Source: Patescibacteria group bacterium (lineage in GTDB: Bacteria > Patescibacteriota > Minisyncoccia > Phycocordibacterales > UBA918). Taken from it: 61,115 bases of DNA. A program made the translations under genes and the position numbers. Below are positions 1,934 through 59,689 of the stretch, piece by piece. Position 1 is the first letter of the stretch. Each line of letters starts with the position of its first letter. The stretch spans positions 1 through 61,115 of the forward strand of contig JAIEOU010000004.1 of the NCBI GenBank assembly GCA_019750255.1. Direction: 5' to 3'. The notes under the pieces were generated by a model. The model had not been told where the DNA came from. It did no database searches and saw only the letters and a program-made list of their open reading frames with translations.

Positions 1934-2384
1934 CTTGGTACTGAAGCCTCTTCGTCCTAACTTTTTCGTGAAGCTCTTTTGCGGTAAGCAGGGCGTAGCT
2001 TTTAGTTTCTGGGTGTAAACTTACAAAGCAAAAGCGAAACTGGTCACCAAGCTGCTCCGCGAGCTTAAACTCGTTTTCCGTTGCTCCAAAAAAGAAGCCT
2101 TTTGGATTCTCTGGTAATCTTTTTCTGGTAGTTTTGAGTTCGACTAAAATAATTTGGTCAAGGGGTACCGTTAGAGGGTCCACCAGGTCGGTACCCGGCG
2201 GAACAAGAACTAGATCAAAAGCCCGGGCAAATGTTTTTGCTAGTTTAAACCTTTCGAGAATACTTATACGTTGTGCATGAGTGGGAATTTTGAATAAACT
2301 ATTAGACTCGAGAAGAAATGCGACAGCAGAAGATTCTGTAGCGTTATTTAAAATTGTAGCGCCGTACGCATGTTCTGTCGCCAT
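1920..2384 (-). CDS. PD-(D/E)xK nuclease-fold protein (DUF3883-like)
   Basis: FDLVLV ... IILVELKTT provides the D...E-x-K core. It is followed by FFFGATENEFKLAEQ and FRFCFV, as in DUF3883-type domains. Confidence 0.5.
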   Translation of the reverse strand: MATEHAYGATILNNATESSAVAFLLESNSLFKIPTHAQRISILERFKLAKTFARAFDLVLVPPGTDLVDPLTVPLDQIILVELKTTRKRLPENPKGFFFGATENEFKLAEQLGDQFRFCFVSLHPETKSYALLTAKELHEKVRTKRLQYQVNLY

Positions 2385-2515
2385 GTGGGGCAGATTAGAT
2401 CATACTGCATTCTTTTGATCAAGTTCACTTGGTAGAAAGGCAAGTAGTCGCAGCTGAAAATAATCCACTTTTCCTAGACACCTATTTCTCGTATACTACA
2501 GCGCATAAAAATGTC

Positions 2516-2588
2516 GGGCCCTTAGCTCATCCGGTAGAGCGCGTCCATGGCATGGACGAGGCGAGCGGTTCAAGTCCGCTAGGGTCCA
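2516..2588 (+). tRNA. tRNA-Ala (anticodon GGC)
   Basis: Clean 73-nt cloverleaf. Acceptor GGGCCCT/AGGGTCC with G3:U70. Anticodon stem CGTCC/GGACG with loop ATGGCAT. T-arm AGCGG-TTCAAGT-CCGCT. CCA is not encoded. Confidence 0.92.
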
Positions 2589-2613
2589 CGAGTATATTTT
2601 ACGAAGCAACTAC

Positions 2614-2643
2614 TTGTACAAAATACCCCCTAGGGGGTATACT
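2614..2643 (+). promoter_or_regulatory. csoR promoter with embedded CsoR-type operator
   Basis: TTGTAC (2614-2619) and TATACT (2638-2643) flank a perfect 18-bp palindrome, ATACCCCCTAGGGGGTAT (2623-2640). This is the G/C-tract inverted-repeat type bound by CsoR-family repressors. Confidence 0.7.
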
Positions 2644-2650
2644 TGTGTGC

Positions 2651-2914
2651 ATGAAAGATTCACACAAAAAGTTAGTCCGTCGACTCAAAATTATCGAAGG
2701 ACAAGTGCGTGGATTGCAGGGAATGATCGAGAAAGATACATACTGCATTGACGTCATCACGCAAACTTCAGCCGTAAAACAAGCCCTTTCAAATATAGAA
2801 GATGTACTCTTGGAAGAACACCTCTCTCACTGTGTAGTGAATCAAATTAAGTCAGGAGACGTAAAGAAGCCAGTCGGAGAAATACTACAGGTGTATCGTT
2901 TAAAGCGTAAATAG
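2651..2914 (+). CDS. csoR: CsoR/RcnR-family metal-sensing transcriptional repressor
   Basis: 87 aa. Contains KKLVRRLKIIEGQVRGLQGMIEKDTYCIDVITQ..A.. and HLSHC, giving the family's Cys/His/Cys ligand pattern. The ATG at 2651 avoids overlap with the tRNA. Confidence 0.85.
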   Translation: MKDSHKKLVRRLKIIEGQVRGLQGMIEKDTYCIDVITQTSAVKQALSNIEDVLLEEHLSHCVVNQIKSGDVKKPVGEILQVYRLKRK

Positions 2915-2915
2915 T

Positions 2916-3464
2916 ATGGAACATAATCATTCAACATCAAGTGCAGTAAAAATTCATCACACAACAAATGTAACTGTGTGGTCATACTGGCCAATCGCTA
3001 CCATATACTTGGTGGCGGCACTTATTTCGCTTTATTCGGTACAATTTCACGCCTACCCTGACTACATGTCCCACCTTATGGGCTGGGTTATGATATTCTT
3101 TGGGGCCATCAAGCTATCCGATGTAGTTGGATTTGCAGAGGGATTTGCAATGTACGACCCACTGGCAAAACGAAGCATCGTTTATTCTCAGGTATACCCA
3201 TTCTTAGAGATCACTCTTGGTATTCTCTTTATACTTCAAGTCCTGATTCTACCTGCGACTCTCATCACTTTGTTTATCTATAGTGCTAGCCTTATCGGCG
3301 CTTTGCAGTCAATGATTAAAAAAGAAACCCTGCACTGCGTGTGCCTCGGGACCTACTTCAAACTTCCGCTCTCGACCGTCACCATTATTGAGGCAGTCTT
3401 TATGATAACGATGTGTATTTGGATGTTAGCAATGTTTAACAGTATGACCATGATGGTCATGTAA
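2916..3464 (+). CDS. polytopic membrane protein (MauE/DoxX-like) in the CsoR operon
   Basis: Four to five TM helices. HCVCLG motif inside a helix. His-rich N-terminus (MEHNHS..HH). Start lies 2 nt after the csoR stop. Confidence 0.45.
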   Translation: MEHNHSTSSAVKIHHTTNVTVWSYWPIATIYLVAALISLYSVQFHAYPDYMSHLMGWVMIFFGAIKLSDVVGFAEGFAMYDPLAKRSIVYSQVYPFLEITLGILFILQVLILPATLITLFIYSASLIGALQSMIKKETLHCVCLGTYFKLPLSTVTIIEAVFMITMCIWMLAMFNSMTMMVM

Positions 3465-3475
3465 TAAAATAATTT

Positions 3476-4135
3476 ATGAAAAATCAATCAATTGCAATCA
3501 TTATTGGACTCGGAATCTTAGTCGTTGGTGCCGTAGCGTATAGTTTTGGTGCAAATAAGGATACTGATACCAAAATGGGTATGAATATGGGTGATGACGT
3601 ACCGGCTGGTATGCACCGTATGCCTGATGGGTCACTGATGGGTAATGCCCCTACTGACAACGACATGGGTATGATGGGTGGCATGGATCACTCAATGATG
3701 ATGGTAAAGAGTGAACGAGAGTTTCTTAAGGGTATGATTCCACACCACCAAGAAGCAGTTGATACTGCCAAGGAGGTAATCGCTCGTGGCGGTTCAACTC
3801 CTGAAATCAAGAAGCTCGCTGAAGACATCATCGCGGCACAAGAGAAAGAGATCGCTATGATGAAGGAGTGGTATCAGGCGTGGTACGGGGAAGCATATGT
3901 TGCTGACCCTAAAGACTACAAACCTATGATGCGTGACCTCTCAACTCTCAGGGGAGCTGCTCTAGATAAGGTCTTTCTCGAAGATATGGTTATGCACCAC
4001 ATGGGAGCAATAATGATGGCACAAAGTGTACAACCATACTTAGAAAATCAAGAAATCACTGATTTGACCAAGGCAATTATGGAGACACAGACAGCGGAGA
4101 TAGAATTGATGCGACAGATGCTTAAAACCTTGTAA
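3476..4135 (+). CDS. DUF305-family protein with Met/His-rich N-terminal tract (putative copper-binding)
   Basis: Signal/anchor helix, then MGMNMGDD..GMHRMPDGSLMG..MGMMGGMDHSMMM. Two DUF305 half-repeats follow (MIPHHQEAV.. and MVMHHMGAI..). Confidence 0.8.
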   Translation: MKNQSIAIIIGLGILVVGAVAYSFGANKDTDTKMGMNMGDDVPAGMHRMPDGSLMGNAPTDNDMGMMGGMDHSMMMVKSEREFLKGMIPHHQEAVDTAKEVIARGGSTPEIKKLAEDIIAAQEKEIAMMKEWYQAWYGEAYVADPKDYKPMMRDLSTLRGAALDKVFLEDMVMHHMGAIMMAQSVQPYLENQEITDLTKAIMETQTAEIELMRQMLKTL

Positions 4136-12404: not shown

Positions 12405-13970
12405 ATGAGTACCGTTATCATCGACAAGATCAAGAAAGAAATTGCTGCCCTCGCCACCGAAGCCCTTCCGGAAGAAATCGGAGTGGTTACGGCCGTGGGT
12501 GACGGTATTGCCGAAATCGACGGTCTGCCTAAAGCGGAAATGATGGAAATGGTGGTGTTTGAAACTGAAGCTGGTAAATCACTGACTGATACGCTCGGAA
12601 GTGAGTCGGCACTGCTGGGTCTCGTTCTTAACCTCGAGGAAGACACCGTAAAGGTGGTGGTGCTTGGTGAATCACGCCGCATCAAAGAGGGTATGCGCGT
12701 GCATCGCACGAAGAAGTTGCTTTCGATTCCGGTAGGACCAAACATTGTGGGTCGCGTGGTCTCGCCCCTCGGTGCACCAATCGACGGCAAGGGCGCCATC
12801 AAGGCTGAGGCCAACATGCCGATTGAGCGTGTAGCCTACGGCGTGATGGAGCGTTCAGCCGTGAACGAACCAATTCACACTGGTATCAAGGCTATCGACT
12901 CAATGATTCCGATTGGTCGTGGCCAGCGCGAGCTCATCATTGGTGACCGCGGTACCGGAAAGACTACGGTAGCAATCGATACCATCATCAACCAAAAGTA
13001 CGAACCAAAAGAGAAGCGCCCACTCTGTATATATGTCGCAATTGGACAAAAGCGATCAAAAACCGCGAGCTTAATGGCCAAGCTGCAAGAAGCTGGAGCG
13101 ATGGAATACACCACCATCGTTGCCACCTCTGCTTCTGAAGCCTCACCAATGCTGTTCTTAGCACCATTTGCTGGTGCCGCCATTGGTGAATTCTTTATGG
13201 CGCAAGGCAAGGACGTCCTCGTTGTATTTGATGACCTCTCAAAGCACGCGAACGCCTACCGCCAGATGTCACTCCTCCTCCGTCGCCCACCAGGACGCGA
13301 AGCCTACCCGGGTGATATTTTCTACCTCCACTCACGCCTCCTTGAGCGTTCAGCCAAGCTCTCAAAAGAACTCGGCGGTGGTTCGATTACCGCGCTTCCT
13401 ATCATCGAAACTCAGGAAGGTGACGTATCGGCCTACATTCCAACGAACGTTATCTCGATTACCGATGGTCAAATCTTCCTCGAAGGCGATCTCTTCAACA
13501 AAGGTATCCGCCCAGCCCTTAACGTTGGTATTTCTGTATCACGCGTAGGGTCAAGTGCGCAGACCAAGGCCATGAAGAAAGTGGCCGGCAAGATTCGTCT
13601 TGAGCTCGCGCAGTTCCGTGAACTCGAAGCTTTCGTACAGTTTGCTTCAGATCTTGATGATGACACAAAGCAGCGTATCGAAAGTGGCCGCAAGTACGTC
13701 GAGCTCCTCAAGCAGCCACAGAACAATCCAATGCCGTTTTACCTCCAGGTTATTTCTCTCTACGCAGCCAACAACGGTATCTACGACAAAGCACCGGTAA
13801 CTAAAGTGCGAGAAATGGAAGCGGCTTGGCTAGAATTCGTACAGCGCGAAAATAAGGCGCTCGTTACCCTGATCGAGGAGAAGCGTGAACTCAGTGACGA
13901 AACCATCGCGACCCTCACTGAACTCATGAATACCTTCAAGTCGGCACATCCAACCTACTACACCGCTTAA
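12405..13970 (+). CDS. atpA: F0F1 ATP synthase subunit alpha
   Basis: GDRGTGKT Walker A and a full-length alpha signature. Confidence 0.97.
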   Translation: MSTVIIDKIKKEIAALATEALPEEIGVVTAVGDGIAEIDGLPKAEMMEMVVFETEAGKSLTDTLGSESALLGLVLNLEEDTVKVVVLGESRRIKEGMRVHRTKKLLSIPVGPNIVGRVVSPLGAPIDGKGAIKAEANMPIERVAYGVMERSAVNEPIHTGIKAIDSMIPIGRGQRELIIGDRGTGKTTVAIDTIINQKYEPKEKRPLCIYVAIGQKRSKTASLMAKLQEAGAMEYTTIVATSASEASPMLFLAPFAGAAIGEFFMAQGKDVLVVFDDLSKHANAYRQMSLLLRRPPGREAYPGDIFYLHSRLLERSAKLSKELGGGSITALPIIETQEGDVSAYIPTNVISITDGQIFLEGDLFNKGIRPALNVGISVSRVGSSAQTKAMKKVAGKIRLELAQFRELEAFVQFASDLDDDTKQRIESGRKYVELLKQPQNNPMPFYLQVISLYAANNGIYDKAPVTKVREMEAAWLEFVQRENKALVTLIEEKRELSDETIATLTELMNTFKSAHPTYYTA

Positions 13971-53715: not shown

Positions 53716-54123
53716 ATGACAACTAAGAAAAACGTATACATTGAGGGCATCGGTCGTCGCAAAACGGCAACTGCTCGCGTGCGCCTCACGCCCGCCAGCA
53801 AGGCCTCAGTGATCATCAACGGCAAGGAGCTCGCTGATTACTTCCCACACGCCGCTCTCCAGAATGATGTACAGGAAATCTTCGCTTTGAAGGACCTCGG
53901 CATCGAGCACTACCACGTGGAAGCTAAGGTGATGGGCGGGGGACTCTCATCACAGGCTGAAGCAATTCGTCTGGGTATCGCACGTGCACTCGTTAAAGAA
54001 AGCGCCCCACGACGTACTGCGCTCAAGAAGGAAGGATTTCTCAAGCGCGATCAGCGCGCCGTCGAACGCAAGAAGTTCGGTCTCCGCAAAGCTCGCAAGC
54101 GACCAGCTTGGTCAAAACGCTAG
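53716..54123 (+). CDS. rpsI: 30S ribosomal protein S9
   Basis: GRRK.A.ARV.L..G.....ING and the C-terminal R..ERKK.G..KARK..QWSKR-like tail. Confidence 0.95.
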   Translation: MTTKKNVYIEGIGRRKTATARVRLTPASKASVIINGKELADYFPHAALQNDVQEIFALKDLGIEHYHVEAKVMGGGLSSQAEAIRLGIARALVKESAPRRTALKKEGFLKRDQRAVERKKFGLRKARKRPAWSKR

Positions 54124-54129
54124 AAATTC

Positions 54130-54159
54130 AAAACACCCCGAAAGGGGTGTTTTGTTTTT
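54130..54159 (+). terminator. rho-independent terminator of the ribosomal-protein operon
   Basis: AAAACACCCC-GAAA-GGGGTGTTTT followed by GTTTTT. Confidence 0.85.
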
Positions 54160-54394
54160 AGCGCATAGGCGATGTAGAACTTAAAGTGCCTGACCACACA
54201 GCGTACTCCATGCATATTGACCACAGTATGGCGTCACGATATGTCTTTGGCATCTTAGGGGCTATTGTTAACATACTCTGCAGTTTAACCGGCAGTGTTC
54301 ACAAGTTATTTGAACTATTAGGCAATTATTGATTAATATATAGAAATGTTGTATAAATCTTACAGGTTAAAAATCTGGACAATAGGAGAGACCA

Positions 54395-54865
54395 GTGTAC
54401 AAGTTCTTTAAAGCGGACCTTGATGCCCTCGATTTCAAAATCGCGGAGCTCGGAAGAACTATCAGGGAAGCAGGCAGACAAATGGGGTCTGCAACTGAGG
54501 ATGGCGAACGAGAACATGATAACCCAGAACTCGAGGATGCAATGCGTCGCTTCGAGATGTGGAGTCATCACCTGCGTGAGTTAAACGGAATTCGGAGTCG
54601 AGCCACAACCATAAACCCCAACGACGTCAAGGCGGACCGTGTATATGTCGGCTGTGACGTCACCTTTGTCGACCAAAATGAGGACGAACGGACTGTCACT
54701 ATTGGTAGCTATATGCCGCACGATGCATCGCTCGCTATCTCGTACAATGCCCCGGTCGCAAAGTTACTGATGGGTCTAGGGGTCGGCGATACTCGTGAGG
54801 GTGTCATCGCAGGAAAACGTGTTCAGTTCGAAGTCCTCTCAATCAAGCCAACAATTCATCGCTAG
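54395..54865 (+). CDS. GreA/GreB-family transcript-cleavage-factor-like protein
   Basis: C-terminal V..G..V.......E...........ISYNAPVAKLLMGLGVGD (Gre C-terminal domain signature). The N-terminal coiled coil has an acidic tip (EDGEREHDNPELEDA). GTG start with an AGGAGAG RBS. Confidence 0.7.
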   Translation: MYKFFKADLDALDFKIAELGRTIREAGRQMGSATEDGEREHDNPELEDAMRRFEMWSHHLRELNGIRSRATTINPNDVKADRVYVGCDVTFVDQNEDERTVTIGSYMPHDASLAISYNAPVAKLLMGLGVGDTREGVIAGKRVQFEVLSIKPTIHR

Positions 54866-54876
54866 GGAGGTGGACA

Positions 54877-55386
54877 ATGGTTAGTTTTTGGACCATCAAG
54901 ATCGCTGGTGTGTCAGGTACCGGTAAAACTACAGTGATGCAGGGACTCAAGTCAATGTCTGGGTTTGTCGGGGAAGTCATCATCTACTCGCAGCTACTTC
55001 GGGAGTATGGTGACAAGGATTTGGCAGATCTAAAACTGGCAGATATCTTGCATAGGACCAGTGGTCTTGTGCTTATGGATGACCACCTTGAGTTTGATAA
55101 TCCCAATAAAACTCGCAATTACATGCGGGAGAATACAAGAGGACTCGTGTTACTCGATGTGCCCTTGAAAGACCTGATGTCTAGGGTGTCGAATGACGCG
55201 AGTAGAACTCGGGAAATCAAACCTCGGGACATGTCTCGAAATCTGCAATTATCGAGACGGAAGGCAATGCAGCTGTCACATGAGACAAAGGTGCCGCTTC
55301 TCGTCATTCCAAACCTGGAAGGCGAGGTCAATAGGTCTATTGCTTTGATCGCGGCGTTTGTTGCTACGAACAGCCCCGCATTTTAG
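54877..55386 (+). CDS. small P-loop NTPase, nucleoside/nucleotide-kinase-like
   Basis: Walker A GVSGTGKTT at residues 11-19. LVLMDDH is a Walker-B-like strand. The size (169 aa) is typical of small-molecule kinases. GGAGG RBS. Confidence 0.5.
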   Translation: MVSFWTIKIAGVSGTGKTTVMQGLKSMSGFVGEVIIYSQLLREYGDKDLADLKLADILHRTSGLVLMDDHLEFDNPNKTRNYMRENTRGLVLLDVPLKDLMSRVSNDASRTREIKPRDMSRNLQLSRRKAMQLSHETKVPLLVIPNLEGEVNRSIALIAAFVATNSPAF

Positions 55387-55411
55387 GGGCTGTTTATTTT
55401 TACTTTTTACA

Positions 55412-56482
55412 ATGAATACATTTACTGTAGGTACAATATTAAATAAAATAAAGACTACCGTGGTCACAACAACACCAGTGTACAAAAGCCTGGTGCTGCA
55501 ATACCCCTCCCGACTAAACGCGATGGCTCTTGATCCGAGTCAAATTGATGTCAAAGGAAATGGTATTTATTCTCCAGGTGAAGTGATATTTTCTATAGCA
55601 ATATATAAGACAGTTACAATTCGTCTACGTATTGATAGTCAGGTTGTAATCACTGGTAATAGCCCACGCCATCAGCTCATTACACACGCCGTGCTTCTAA
55701 TGAGAGGAGTGCTTCAAACCGAACAAGGTTTTGATATTGATGTAGAGTCTGAAGATTTGCGTCATTGTGGTCTTGGCTCAAGTAGCGGACTAATTTCTGC
55801 CGTAGCTACGGCAATCAACGAAATGTACGGTAATCCAATACCTCGACTGGAACTTATAGCGTACCTCGCTCAGAATCATGGTGAGGAAATGGATGATAGT
55901 AGAAATGATTTACAGCATGTGCAGTGTATTGGAGGAGCGGCCGCTGCTGGCTTGGTGGAGTCTGGCATGACTGTATTGGCCGGTGAATCAACTCCAATTG
56001 GAACAATGTCGATAGATGATTCGTATACTGTATTAATTGGAATACCCAATGATTTTATTGCCCCTGATTCAAAAGAACTAATGCGCTTGGAAATGCTTAA
56101 TATGCATAAGTTTATTGCAACCGGAAATCAGTATCGTGATAAAATTGGCTACAGGGTGACTCATGAAATGTTGCCGCAGATGAAAAAAGGGAACTTACAA
56201 GAGGCAGCAAGGTTAATCTTTGATTACCGTTTCAATTACGGAAGTATTGTTAACTGTTCGTTTGTATACCCGAAAATAATAGATATTGCGGCAGACATAC
56301 GATCACTCTTTGAAAAAGACATCGTTGACGTGTTGGCCTTGTCGAGTGTCGGACCTGCCTTTTTTGCAATCACAAAGGAACCCGATATATGTGAATCAGT
56401 ATTTCTCAATAACAACCTGGGTGTCCGAAGAACTACAATTAACAATACTGGATACAGTGTTACTGGTAGCGAATCAATATGA
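55412..56482 (+). CDS. GHMP-kinase-superfamily protein, beta-ribofuranosylaminobenzene-5'-phosphate (beta-RFAP) synthase-like
   Basis: N-terminal YPSRLNAMALDPS resembles the TPSR(I/L)H.GLIDL start of beta-RFAP synthases. CGLGSSSGLISA is GHMP motif II. LSSVGPAFFAIT is GHMP motif III. AT-rich. Confidence 0.6.
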   Translation: MNTFTVGTILNKIKTTVVTTTPVYKSLVLQYPSRLNAMALDPSQIDVKGNGIYSPGEVIFSIAIYKTVTIRLRIDSQVVITGNSPRHQLITHAVLLMRGVLQTEQGFDIDVESEDLRHCGLGSSSGLISAVATAINEMYGNPIPRLELIAYLAQNHGEEMDDSRNDLQHVQCIGGAAAAGLVESGMTVLAGESTPIGTMSIDDSYTVLIGIPNDFIAPDSKELMRLEMLNMHKFIATGNQYRDKIGYRVTHEMLPQMKKGNLQEAARLIFDYRFNYGSIVNCSFVYPKIIDIAADIRSLFEKDIVDVLALSSVGPAFFAITKEPDICESVFLNNNLGVRRTTINNTGYSVTGSESI

Positions 56483-57132
56483 GTTTTATACAAACATTTC
56501 AATTTTGGAATAGCAGAAAAAACGTTCAGTATTTTAAAGACAAGCCAGCCGATCCGCGAATTGAGAAACGACTTATTGAGTTTCGGCAAAATAGCGCTAC
56601 TCATGTAGAAGCCCTTGATCTGGGCTGTGGTGGCGGGAGACATACTGAACTTTTGGTTACGTTAGGATTCTCAACGCACGCAATTGATCTTAACCCACAG
56701 ATGCTACGGTGCACTAAAGATAGAGTAGGTGGAAATAACATAATAACTCTTAAAAGGGCTTCAATTATAAAGCTCCCCTTTCGTAATAATTTTTTTGATG
56801 TCGTTGTCACAACCGGCGTTTTACATCAAGCCAAAAACATTACTGAGTACCAGTTGGCAATATGTGAGTTATCTCGCGTAGTGAAGCAAGGTGGATTAGT
56901 TTGTCTGAACATCTTTACATCCGCCAAACTTGATCCAACGTACAGAAAGAATAAGGATGTGTTTTCATTTAAAACTAAAGAGGGTTTGGATATGACTCTT
57001 TTAAATAAAGAGTTATTCTACAATATGATGAGTTGGTATGGTCTTACACTAGAGCAGGAGCTATCCGAAGACTTTGTGCAGGAGAATACTGGAGAGAGAA
57101 GTGTGTTGAGATGTAATTTTATTAAATTGTAA
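56479..57132 (+). CDS. class I SAM-dependent methyltransferase
   Basis: ALDLGCGGGRH (motif I), a post-I acidic residue (AIDLN) and VVTTGVLHQ. The start overlaps the upstream stop (ATGA). Confidence 0.8.
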   Translation: MSFIQTFQFWNSRKNVQYFKDKPADPRIEKRLIEFRQNSATHVEALDLGCGGGRHTELLVTLGFSTHAIDLNPQMLRCTKDRVGGNNIITLKRASIIKLPFRNNFFDVVVTTGVLHQAKNITEYQLAICELSRVVKQGGLVCLNIFTSAKLDPTYRKNKDVFSFKTKEGLDMTLLNKELFYNMMSWYGLTLEQELSEDFVQENTGERSVLRCNFIKL

Positions 57133-57142
57133 TTCAATCATT

Positions 57143-57700
57143 ATGAAAATTTCGTATGTAACAGGTAATGTAGGAAAGTTCGAAAATGCTCAAAAGTTCT
57201 TTACTCAATTTAATATTGAGGTTGAACAGTTACCAATTAAAGTTGAGGAGATTCAGAGTGGCAACTCACTTGAAATTGCTGTGGCAAAGGCCGAAGCTGC
57301 GTATGCACAAGTCAAAAAACCCTTGTTTGTAAATGACGCCAGTTGGATTATCCCAGCATTGGGTGGCTTTCCCGGTCCATTTATGAAATTTGTGAATCAG
57401 TGGTTCAAGCCACAAGATTTCATCAATCTCATGATTGATAAATTAGATCGTAGAATCATTCTTAAGGATAGTATTGTTTACATTGATGAGTCGGGACATA
57501 ATGTCTTTACCCATGAACACGTAGGGATAATATTAAATGAGGTCGCTGCCTTTGAGTATAAGAATCCAACCGATGTGGTAGTTTCACTGTCTGCCAATCA
57601 TTCATCAGTAGCAGAAGAAAAGTCAAAAGGTAGTTTTTTCATAGAAAATGAAGATGCTGTCTGGAAAGAGTTTGTTACATGGCTACAAAATAACAGGTAA
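57143..57700 (+). CDS. Ham1/ITPase-family non-canonical NTP pyrophosphatase-like protein
   Basis: N-terminal YVTGNVGKFENA (Ham1 motif TGNxGKxxE), then DASW.IPALGGFPGPF (compare D.GL....L.G.PG.Y). About 185 aa. Confidence 0.65.
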   Translation: MKISYVTGNVGKFENAQKFFTQFNIEVEQLPIKVEEIQSGNSLEIAVAKAEAAYAQVKKPLFVNDASWIIPALGGFPGPFMKFVNQWFKPQDFINLMIDKLDRRIILKDSIVYIDESGHNVFTHEHVGIILNEVAAFEYKNPTDVVVSLSANHSSVAEEKSKGSFFIENEDAVWKEFVTWLQNNR

Positions 57701-57781
57701 GCGCGTTGATTGACGCTATAATTATATATTGTATATTATTGATAGAGCTAGCGAGATCAAATATTGAGAAAGGAATGTCCA

Positions 57782-58879
57782 ATGAGCACGGTGAAAACAG
57801 CTCCTGCCTATGCTATCTACAAGATGGGTAAGTTGCTGGATCAAAGTGTCCAGGAGCTCGACCCGCTCGGTTTTGATAAGTACTTTGTTAGTGGCGAGTT
57901 TTCTCAGTGTGCCACAGCACGTTCTGCCGAAGCCATTCTGGTTTTTGTCGAAAAAAATGTAAATCCGATAAGCTTCGACACAATAGCCAGGATGAACGAA
58001 GTGTCTGCCATGGCCGCTGCTCGTGATCTCAATATGGTTGCATCTGTTGCGACTAGATTTGGGGTACCGATACACACGATGCCGCAGCTTGAGTCATTTT
58101 TACTGCTCCTGTCTGAAAAGACTCGAGAAGTTCCTACTGACACAGTGTTCGGTTACGGATCGCGGAATCCGGAAGGGAAGCGTCGTCGTTCGTTTACTGG
58201 AACCCCCGAAGAAGATTTGTTCATCGACTCTTTTACTGAGGGAATGAACAGTTTGATTGTTACACTGGCCGCCCTTGAAACCGTGCAAACAATGAGCCTC
58301 GCAAATGGGCGGTACTCACAGCTTGTGAGTGAGGCTGGGTCTGGTTTCAGTCAAATGTCCGAGTCGATCCTGCGTGTGCGCAAGCACATTACGCCGGATT
58401 TCTTCACCAACAAGCTCCGGCCATTTTTTGATCCCAAAACCATCCGCGGTAAGACATACTTTGCTGCGGGGGGAGCGCAGATGCCAGTGACTGTCGTTGA
58501 CTTGATTTTGTGGGGGGTCGAGGACAGTGATCGAATGTATCTTGGGTATCGTAGCGAACATCTGAGGTACCTACCTCGCTTCTATCACGCAAAGGTTGAG
58601 TCCATTTTTCAAAGTCCTTCAATTCTACACGCTGTCGGTGTTGAATTGAGTGGGGGTTTGCCAGCTAATTCACAAAATGCGAAGGCTGCCCTGGAGGCTT
58701 TGAGAGATTTTGCTGATCAGATAATCAGTTTTCGGGCTCCGCATCTTGGGGTTGCGAAAGCAAATATGAAAATCAGATCAGCTGGTTCGGTAGGTAGTGG
58801 GGGCTATGACCTTTTCATCCTTCAGTACCTCATCGATAGGACAAAGCGATTCAAAGCGAGTATGACGCCACCTAAGTAG
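57782..58879 (+). CDS. indoleamine-2,3-dioxygenase/PrnB-superfamily heme enzyme-like protein
   Basis: Collinear matches to recalled IDO motifs. [20 protein letters not shown] matches [29 protein letters not shown] matches [19 protein letters not shown] matches SLRSYHLQIV (proximal His). [13 protein letters not shown] matches GTGGTDLMNFLK. The ATG at 57782 is preceded by GAGAAAGGAA. Confidence 0.6.
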   Translation: [365 protein letters not shown]

Positions 58880-58890
58880 AAGATGACTCT

Positions 58891-58913
58891 GGGCCCGCCA
58901 TAAAAGCGGGCCC
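58891..58913 (+). terminator. rho-independent terminator closing the cassette
   Basis: GGGCCCGC-CATAAAA-GCGGGCCC. Confidence 0.7.
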
Positions 58914-59079
58914 ACATTCTTTTGTTACACATGAGTGTACCTATATGATATTTGAAATGTGTGTAACTCTTGACACTTATCGCTGCAGCCTGACCCTATC
59001 AGGCGGCTTTCAAATTCCAATCTATCATAGTTCCGTTTTGCTATGCTTCGCTCGCAAAGACGGTGGAGAAAGGTGAGTT

Positions 59080-59108
59080 TTGACAACCCCCTTTTATAGA
59101 TTTATAAT
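59080..59108 (+). promoter_or_regulatory. consensus sigma70-type promoter immediately upstream of grpE
   Basis: TTGACA (59080-59085), a 17-nt spacer, then TATAAT (59103-59108). The -10 lies only about 8 nt before the grpE ATG, implying a leaderless or near-leaderless mRNA. Confidence 0.6.
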
Positions 59109-59116
59109 GCGTGGGT

Positions 59117-59689
59117 ATGGTGAATAAACACGACAAACACGAACACGATGATGATATAGAGTTCACCAACGAAATTCCTGACACGATTGAATCAGAACTC
59201 GAAGATGAAGACATTGAAGAGTTAAGCGCAGCGAAGGTTAAGAAACTTCGCGACGCACTGAAAGAAGCTGAAGCAGCCAAACGCGACGCGCTTGAAGCCC
59301 TCGCGCGCGAGCGTGCCGATTTCCTTAATGCCCGCAAGCGCCTTGAGGAGCAAAAGGTATCCGACATGGAACGAGTAACCGCACGGCATATAGAAGCCAT
59401 CCTGCCGCTCGCAGACAGCTTCGAGATGGCCATGCAGGACCCCAAGTGGCAAAGTGCCGATGAGGTATGGCGCAAGGGCGTAGAGGGCATTTATGCGCAA
59501 CTCACGACCATCCTTCGAGCTTACGGAGTAGAAGAAATCATGCCGCTCGGGCAGCAGTTTAACCCAGTCGAGCACGAAGCGCTGACCGACAGTGGCACCA
59601 ATGATATCGTTGCAGCCGTTCTCCAGAAAGGTTACCGCAAGGGTGCGACGATTATTCGACCAGCCAAGGTGGCAGTAGGGACGAGCTAG
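59117..59689 (+). CDS. grpE: nucleotide exchange factor GrpE
   Basis: Acidic N-terminus, coiled coil, LLP.ADSFE.A, then G......L...L...GV..I...G..F.P..HEA and KGY......I.RPA.V.V. A GTG at 59111 is an alternative start. Confidence 0.85.
   Translation: MVNKHDKHEHDDDIEFTNEIPDTIESELEDEDIEELSAAKVKKLRDALKEAEAAKRDALEALARERADFLNARKRLEEQKVSDMERVTARHIEAILPLADSFEMAMQDPKWQSADEVWRKGVEGIYAQLTTILRAYGVEEIMPLGQQFNPVEHEALTDSGTNDIVAAVLQKGYRKGATIIRPAKVAVGTS

Follow-up and report, generated by a model that had tools for sequence, protein, structure and literature searches.

ForT, PyfQ and beta-RFA-P (RHP) synthase are C-glycoside synthases that share the GHMP fold, depend on phosphoribosyl pyrophosphate (PRPP), and serve the formycin, pyrazofurin and methanopterin pathways. 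Their reaction consumes PRPP and an aromatic acid and gives off PPi and CO2. In ForT, PRPP is bound by Arg19, His99 and Thr106, all of which engage its pyrophosphate and the second of which lies in the GHMP loop (PMC8183095, PMC9832568), and Glu211 is the only residue whose loss abolishes catalysis (PMC9832568). PrnB, the heme enzyme known from pyrrolnitrin biosynthesis, has a proximal heme histidine, a clamp for the substrate carboxylate, and residues that bind the amino-acid group of the substrate (PMC11791213). Here we describe a locus that places relatives of these two enzymes side by side, at 54395-58879 of a 61,115-nucleotide stretch of DNA (the window; contig JAIEOU010000004.1, assembly GCA_019750255.1) from a Patescibacteria group bacterium. 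It encodes, in order, a Gre-like factor, a P-loop protein with a nucleoside monophosphate (NMP) kinase fold, a GHMP-superfamily enzyme, a methyltransferase, a Ham1-family pyrophosphatase and a PrnB-family heme enzyme. We give about even weight to the reading that a conserved, horizontally mobile cassette, represented here by one copy, makes and manages a non-canonical nucleotide-like molecule derived from an aromatic amino acid. In kind, we place the cassette among nucleoside-analogue biosynthetic clusters, with a ForT-like enzyme at its centre and unusual partners; PrnB or U32, Ham1 and Gre-like partners are absent from the known C-nucleoside clusters in the papers that we consulted. The literature that we searched holds no description of the cassette, and no paper tying PrnB to GHMP, Ham1, the Candidate Phyla Radiation (CPR) or C-nucleoside synthases.

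The gene set is conserved in other genomes far more often than chance would allow. A single-sequence search found no relatives of the GHMP protein in genome contigs, and an alignment-based search did. We fetched 38 species-representative loci with the GHMP protein as the only bait, all of them flanked by 3.5 kb or more of sequence on each side; the sampling favors sequences that match two peptide patterns, and the presence or absence of a partner was set by the profile thresholds of this analysis. A methyltransferase accompanies GHMP in 33 of these loci, Ham1 in 23, an NMP-kinase-like protein of the AAA_18 type or another, AAA_17-type kinase in 23, PrnB in 19 (20 when a fusion in locus L031 is counted), and the Gre-like factor in 17. 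Against a chance expectation of about 1.3% per gene, the binomial P does not exceed 1e-22 for any partner. The identical six-gene order, Gre-like gene included, recurs at loci where PrnB is 74% and 62% identical and the flanks are unrelated, and relatives at 34-40% identity keep PrnB-GHMP-methyltransferase, with Ham1, the P-loop kinase and the Gre-like gene in other orders. The Gre-like gene adjoins the cassette in L001-L004 and L006; it had been thought possibly unrelated in a preliminary description of this DNA, and is instead a recurrent member. The genes are also found joined into single proteins. PrnB and GHMP form one protein in P0203 and P0201 and share a single 744-residue frame in L031, GHMP is joined to the methyltransferase in P0109 (full-length identity 50%), P0207, P0235, L051, L053 and L064, and PrnB is joined to Ham1 in P0042, so that fusions link four components of the cassette.

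Few proteins belong to the GHMP family, which stands as a separate clade: a scan of 1.84 billion representatives gives only 356 clusters at 50% identity with E <= 1e-3. Its carriers include many Patescibacteria lineages, metagenome-assembled genomes (MAGs) labelled DPANN, Lachnospiraceae, Streptomyces and Micromonospora, and a Ktedonobacteraceae MAG, although the taxonomic labels of MAGs may be wrong, especially 'archaeal' and 'Gammaproteobacteria'. No GHMP relatives were found in viral contigs, a phage collection or a plasmid collection. Some copies sit beside an integrase (rve), serine recombinases, an ApeA-type HEPN gene or relaxase/TraG-like genes, and these neighbours are consistent with horizontal mobility of the cassette. 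Variant loci add genes for a nucleoside diphosphate kinase (NDK; adjacent in one locus), NUDIX hydrolases and HAD phosphatases, which, together with the NMP-kinase fold and the intact catalytic residues of Ham1, give the cassette its nucleotide theme. They also hold MfnA-like aromatic amino-acid decarboxylases, a CobD/HisC-like pyridoxal phosphate (PLP) enzyme and Cof-type phosphatases, and in one protein an Asp/Glu-racemase domain is fused to a GHMP fragment. The decarboxylases and the racemase domain, being adjacent or fused, supply an amino-acid theme, and the decarboxylase, PLP, phosphatase, NUDIX and racemase genes as a group fit an amino-acid-derived phosphorylated intermediate. One such variant is an AraC-regulated locus in the gut anaerobe Eubacterium ramulus ATCC 29099 (L055, 2520-13488), which contains an MfnA-like decarboxylase, U32, GHMP, a CobD/HisC-like PLP enzyme, a Cof phosphatase, a methyltransferase, and MiaB-like and B12-binding radical-SAM proteins, without Ham1, the kinase or Gre.

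The GHMP enzyme resembles ForT most closely in its predicted structure and keeps equivalents of four residues of the ForT active site. An AlphaFold2 model with a predicted local distance difference test (pLDDT) score of 92.5 returns ForT as the top three Foldseek matches (E 2e-17, query TM-score (TMq) 0.67-0.68), followed by homoserine kinase (3e-15, TMq 0.58-0.63). ForT orthologs were recovered and aligned with the family profile to profile, at an hhalign probability of only 81%; in this alignment ForT Arg19, His99, Thr106 and Glu211 correspond to R34, H118, S125 and E227, which are invariant in 34/34 members. Motif III follows the ForT pattern, LSxxGPAxFA (L-S-S-V-G-P-A, compared with L-S-V-T-G-P-A in ForT), and the kinase motif III, S-G-S-G-P, does not occur in the family. 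The motif II loop, H-C-G-L-G-S-S-S, conforms to GxGLGSS, but ForT shares this loop, so it does not discriminate. Additionally, the best curated-model match of the E. ramulus member is beta-RFA-P synthase. The surroundings are also reminiscent of ForT-type clusters in combining an aromatic unit with tailoring enzymes and, in some variants, a phosphatase. The protein nonetheless differs from the ForT-type synthases, to which it is only 18-19% identical: it scores 23-42 bits against an NCBIfam cut-off of 328 (23.6 against 328 bits for NF040726, and 22.6 against 113.5 for TIGR00144), and its acceptor-binding residues are not the same. On balance we lean slightly toward an enzyme that is ForT-like in mechanism and is not a member of the beta-RFAP synthase family. 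The preliminary description had called it beta-RFAP-synthase-like; the ForT structural match and the four invariant residues make the kinship plausible, and the missing Arg135 motif and tied curated models, described next, weigh against it.

Several features of the enzyme weigh against a synthase. The lead of ForT over homoserine kinase in Foldseek is modest, a profile search of the PDB prefers homoserine kinase (1e-7) over ForT (0.1), and curated models do not separate beta-RFAP synthase from homoserine kinase, 34/34 members matching each. ForT holds the 5'-phosphate at Gly134 and Arg135, with Thr138, Ser139 and Ser142; here the motif G134-R135-G-R-T138-S139 is replaced by an invariant Q-N-H-G-E-E and a 17-residue insertion, such that R135 becomes invariant Q154, R137 becomes H156, and T138 becomes G157. 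Furthermore, the invariant G157-E158 pair aligns with the Y-G-E of homoserine kinase in a HMMER alignment, which puts E158 at Glu130, a residue that we take to be Mg-binding.

These features are what one would expect if the same conserved pathway had a true ATP-dependent kinase at its centre. Such an enzyme would phosphorylate a hydroxyl placed by PrnB or U32 on an aromatic amino acid or nucleoside, in the way that homoserine kinase and PduX act on their substrates, the methyltransferase would tailor the product, and the P-loop kinase, Ham1 and Gre would serve in the salvage or sanitation of nucleotides in organisms that scavenge them from a host. The best PDB profile match, the homoserine-kinase models matched by every member, and the loss of the ForT Arg135 site with retention of a homoserine-kinase-like G-E all favor it. 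Hydroxylases of the U32 type would supply a hydroxyl for phosphorylation, and the CobD/HisC-like PLP enzyme that follows GHMP in E. ramulus recalls the PduX-CobD pair. However, ForT is the best structural match, the equivalents of its R19, H99 and E211 are invariant whereas homoserine kinase has G/A at the histidine position, and motif III lacks the glycines of the kinase SGSGP. A simple hydroxyl kinase also leaves the NMP-kinase, Ham1/NUDIX, NDK and Gre partners unexplained, and the protein reaches only 28.8 bits against a cut-off of 194 in the homoserine-kinase equivalog. We regard the kinase as a less favored but serious rival of the synthase. A narrower idea, that the E. ramulus variant builds a cobamide nucleotide loop (PduX plus CobD), was retained only within the kinase explanation, as CPR cassettes have no CobD-like gene.

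All five domain calls of the preliminary description hold, each scoring above its Pfam gathering score (AAA_18, GHMP_kinases_N, Methyltransf_11, Ham1p_like and PrnB), and every cassette protein falls far below the NCBIfam equivalog cut-offs of the housekeeping enzymes that it resembles. The Ham1 protein scores 58.3 bits against the Ham1p_like cut-off of 22.5, and its best solved relatives are Mj0226 (2e-37), PH1917 and KomB (2e-19). It has in common with these proteins, and with ITPA and RdgB, the fold and the N-terminal catalytic residues, which are intact; T7, N9, K12, E36, D65 and a G-x-P-G-P motif are invariant. What sets it apart from house-cleaning ITPases is the region of base recognition, where D-x-V-W stands in place of the C-terminal SHR motif of Mj0226 and the archaeal ITPases. 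It also scores below equivalog cut-offs (97.7 bits against 203 for the XTP/dITP diphosphatase) and is embedded in, and at times fused to, a biosynthetic cassette. By profile, the P-loop protein matches the AdkA-like SSO1041 (3lw7/3h0k) over its full length at 7e-14, and then adenylate and UMP/CMP kinases. No characterised structural relative was found for the methyltransferase. For Pfam PF01272 the Gre-like protein reaches 43.6 bits, where the cut-off is 26.9, and it resembles GreA, GreB, Gfh1 and Rnk in its C-terminal domain. Its coiled coil has an acidic tip, at which a glutamate and D42 align with GreA D41 and E44 in close relatives, and only D42 is invariant. It differs from GreA and GreB in lying far below the equivalogs (50 bits against 139 for NCBIfam GreA) and in traveling with a metabolic cassette, including in MAGs labelled archaeal.

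The kinship of Ham1 with KomB, the HAM1-like Kongming subunit, raises a further possibility, that the locus serves in phage defence or conflict. Its signal would be a rare, base-modified nucleotide made by the cassette, conceptually as in Kongming, and the Ham1-like protein would sense or limit that nucleotide. The recombinase, HEPN (ApeA), relaxase/TraG or integrase genes beside some loci would suit such a system, as would the atypical composition of the core genes. So would P0201, a metagenomic protein of 883 residues in which HEPN_Toprim_N is fused to PrnB and GHMP; the fusion may connect the cassette with conflict systems, or may be an artefact of gene calling. In contrast, PADLOC gave only a generic methyltransferase match, the cassette has neither an effector (SIR2, nuclease or membrane protein) nor a deaminase, no relative lies on viral contigs, phage records or plasmids, and the copy in the window sits between ribosomal-protein and chaperone operons. 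We consider a conflict system improbable. Kongming itself was rejected, since the KomA deaminase and the KomC SIR2 effector are missing and only the KomB-like Ham1 is present.

The last protein of the cassette is unambiguously placed by its sequence in the PrnB family of heme enzymes. It scores 72.3 bits against a cut-off of 27 for Pfam PF08933, and its profile matches FbPrnB (9dfg) and the pyrrolnitrin enzyme PfPrnB (2v7i) over the full length, with E values of 4e-76 and 2.5e-71, respectively. It retains the proximal histidine (H321, in FRxPH), the Gly-Gly clamp (G230/G231), the loop serine (S339) and a tyrosine, Y125, equivalent to Tyr104 of FbPrnB. Two related loci, L033 (2934-6302) and L035 (3750-9999), have two PrnB paralogs, or in L035 three PrnB-like ORF matches, and two Ham1 paralogs for one GHMP-methyltransferase pair.

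PrnB is nevertheless absent from about half of the GHMP loci, and a U32-like protein replaces it in many of these. Among the 38 loci, 19 have only PrnB, 12 only U32, none both and 7 neither (Fisher p = 3.7e-5), and the loci with U32 have the same methyltransferase, Ham1, kinase and Gre genes as partners. All 14 U32 members tested match the Pfam model, with weak scores; the members have three invariant cysteines and one nearly invariant, and no solved relative was found for the family by sequence. Characterised U32 relatives are O2-independent hydroxylases, and the U32 systems UbiU/UbiV, TrhP and RlhA follow an oxidise-then-methylate logic. The cassette is similar to these in setting a U32 protein with invariant cysteines beside GHMP and a methyltransferase in PrnB-less loci; it differs in that its U32 is a separate, weakly scoring subfamily and that the enzyme in the window is PrnB. 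PrnB is the version in actinomycete loci, and U32 that in Lachnospiraceae/Bacillota loci. This distribution and the mutual exclusion suggest that one and the same oxidation step is carried out in either an aerobic or an anaerobic version. Because U32 replaces PrnB, the role of PrnB is more likely oxidation or hydroxylation of an aromatic unit than the making of an aromatic amine, which the preliminary description had proposed; its family assignment stands.

The homology to PrnB, with its conserved active-site residues, could also point to an aminophenylpyrrole antibiotic pathway of the prnABCD type, similar to that for pyrrolnitrin. We find this very improbable, and rejected it. Neither a PrnA/PrnC halogenase nor a PrnD oxygenase is present among the cassette or flanking genes, which include rpsI and grpE; PrnB is dispensable in half of the family; and, unlike pyrrolnitrin PrnB, the cassette enzyme is fused or adjacent to GHMP and Ham1 and interchangeable with U32. 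PrnB homologs also occur in unrelated cluster types, FbPrnB among them. The locus of FbPrnB (L079, 8001-9053) is of another kind, and not prnABCD, with an AMP-binding enzyme, a DegT aminotransferase, a UbiA prenyltransferase, several radical-SAM proteins and a vanadium-haloperoxidase-like protein as neighbours; when tested for cassette membership, the crystallised FbPrnB was not found in species-representative genomes. Least probable of all is a chance row of housekeeping genes (homoserine kinase, an rRNA/tRNA methyltransferase, RdgB and GreA), since, even though each superfamily has housekeeping members, the co-occurrence statistics refute it, all scores lie far below curated equivalog cut-offs, the GHMP clade is tiny, and the genes co-localise across phyla in shuffled order and in three kinds of fusion, in agreement with the conserved, non-housekeeping unit first proposed for them and not with unrelated families that lack conserved co-localisation.

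Returning to a cassette that makes a nucleotide-like molecule, we infer every chemical step of the pathway that follows, while the gene associations, fusions and residue conservation behind it are observed. In the first step, the heme of PrnB would bind a tryptophan-like amino acid, whose ring would be oxidised or rearranged, U32 doing so in anaerobes. The GHMP enzyme, using R34, H118, S125 and E227, would then join this unit to a phosphoribosyl donor, for example PRPP, to give a ribonucleoside 5'-phosphate analogue. The methyltransferase, often fused to GHMP, would methylate this product, and the NMP-kinase-like protein would phosphorylate the analogue further. Ham1, with its altered base pocket, would convert the analogue triphosphate to the monophosphate, either to control the pool or to protect the producer. 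Finally, the Gre-like factor would act at the secondary channel of RNA polymerase, where it might clear transcripts that end in the analogue or limit entry of the analogue. In its most specific and more doubtful form, which we regard as unlikely, the product would be a C- or N-ribonucleoside triphosphate derived from tryptophan, with RNA polymerase as its target, and would serve as a weapon against the host or competitors or as a signal. Its producer would be shielded by a dedicated Gre-type factor and an analogue-tuned Ham1, oxidation would be interchangeable between an aerobic form (PrnB) and an anaerobic one (U32), and the cassette would rank among the few capacities for biosynthesis that CPR/DPANN episymbionts, with their reduced genomes, have kept and exchanged.

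A number of points count against the pathway as a whole. The product and activity of the cassette are predicted from sequence, as is the order of the steps. The Lachnospiraceae variants have no Ham1, kinase or Gre, and the nucleotide-handling layer is therefore not universal. The profile of the Gre-like protein matches the cleavage factor GreA (1grj, 2e-12) about as well as the anti-cleavage factor Gfh1 (9e-12), so its effect could run in either direction. Patescibacteria are generally thought to be without heme synthesis, which leaves the source of the PrnB cofactor unexplained. In addition, purified PrnB has never been active in vitro, and the chemistry proposed here is thus an extrapolation (PMC11791213).

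The features of the locus and its surroundings are collected in Table 1.

Table 1. Features in and around the cassette; coordinates are those of the window, except in the last row, where they are those of the related loci named.
Feature	Coordinates	Strand	Basis or detail
Terminator-like hairpin closing the rplM-rpsI operon	54129-54154		
Gre-like factor	54395..54865	+	GreA/GreB C-terminal domain and coiled coil, acidic tip G-E-R-E-H-D42-N-P-E
P-loop protein, NMP-kinase fold	54877..55386	+	Walker A GVSGTGKT; Pfam AAA_18
Conserved hairpin over the P-loop stop codon	55368..55395	+	Stem AACAGCCCC/GGGGCTGTT, T-rich tail, terminator-like
GHMP-superfamily enzyme, separate clade	55412..56482	+	Pfam GHMP_kinases_N, AlphaFold2 model, Foldseek
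Class I S-adenosylmethionine (SAM)-dependent methyltransferase	56479..57132	+	Pfam Methyltransf_11, 3.7e-20
Divergent Ham1/ITPase-family nucleoside triphosphate pyrophosphatase	57143..57700	+	Pfam Ham1p_like
Promoter-like site in the 81-nt Ham1-PrnB gap	57710..57739	+	TTGACG-16/18-TATATT/TATTAT, 10/12 matches
PrnB-family heme enzyme (IDO/TDO superfamily)	57782..58879	+	Pfam PrnB
Intrinsic-terminator-like hairpin closing the cassette	58890..58914	+	9-bp stem with 8 G-C pairs, then T-rich tail
Sigma-70 consensus promoter directly upstream of grpE	59080-59108		TTGACA-17-TATAAT, 12/12
Mobility-gene neighbours of related copies	L001 3535-4461; L007 262-1812, 5041-6450; L010 1-1676, 10965-13589		

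The layout agrees with the preliminary description of five tightly packed, co-directional genes between two terminators. The open reading frames (ORFs), all on the + strand, run 54877-55386, 55358-56482, 56479-57132, 57143-57700 and 57764-58879, and the group lies between the rplM-rpsI operon and grpE-dnaK. The GHMP stop and methyltransferase start overlap as ATGA at 56479, exactly as described. From the length of its relatives, 354 residues, GHMP probably starts at ATG 55412 rather than at TTG 55358, and P0001 makes 57782 the likely start of the PrnB-like gene.

Only part of the cassette is unusual in composition. The earlier counts of 22 G+C in 56701-56760 and 33 in 12661-12720 are exact, and low GC is indeed a property of GHMP (0.407), the methyltransferase (0.379) and Ham1 (0.371), which deviate from the backbone by z values of -2.9, -3.8 and -4.0, respectively (reference: 92 backbone windows of 600 bp, 0.498 +/- 0.032) and have a third-position GC (GC3) of 0.34-0.36. 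The P-loop gene (0.476) and PrnB (0.488), for which AT-richness had also been claimed, are backbone-like, as is the Gre-like gene (0.514). With only three of its genes AT-rich, the cassette is a compositional mosaic. GC returns from 0.37 to 0.49 exactly at the promoter-like site between Ham1 and PrnB, so PrnB may be transcribed separately, or the three central genes may have been replaced by recombination; sites of this promoter type are as frequent in shuffled sequence as in the region, and this one is a weak lead only. A second low-GC stretch lies at 2001-4000 of the window, with a GC of 0.42-0.44 compared with about 0.50.

The hairpin over the P-loop stop codon is itself conserved. The window holds a single occurrence, where chance would give 0, and it is found once in each of 10 loci that have the window's gene order (for example L001 5580-5606, L003 1169-1194 and L012-L017). 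Its 9-bp stem, AACAGCCCC/GGGGCTGTT, is identical across loci, and the loop varies in length and sequence. Its 3' arm does not encode protein, so selection appears to act on the hairpin itself. Possible roles between Gre/P-loop and GHMP are attenuation, partial termination, and stabilisation or processing of the mRNA. A search of 53900-59300 for riboswitches and other RNA families gave no Rfam match.

Patescibacteria and DPANN archaea are regarded as nearly without biosynthesis, and a cassette that they retain and exchange, and that cultured Lachnospiraceae and actinomycetes carry as well, points to a metabolite that is relevant to their lifestyle. If our reading is true, the GHMP-fold glycoside synthases, a very small group, would gain a new branch, and the cassette might yield a new natural nucleotide analogue. 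The cassette would also provide a second physiological context for PrnB-family heme enzymes, a clean case of an O2-dependent enzyme exchanged for an O2-independent one, and a connection between a Gre-type RNA-polymerase factor and the metabolism of small molecules. These proposals can be tested in carriers that are in culture, namely Eubacterium ramulus ATCC 29099, Lachnotalea glycerini DSM 28816, Streptomyces marokkonensis JCM 17027 and Micromonospora sp. DSM 115977.

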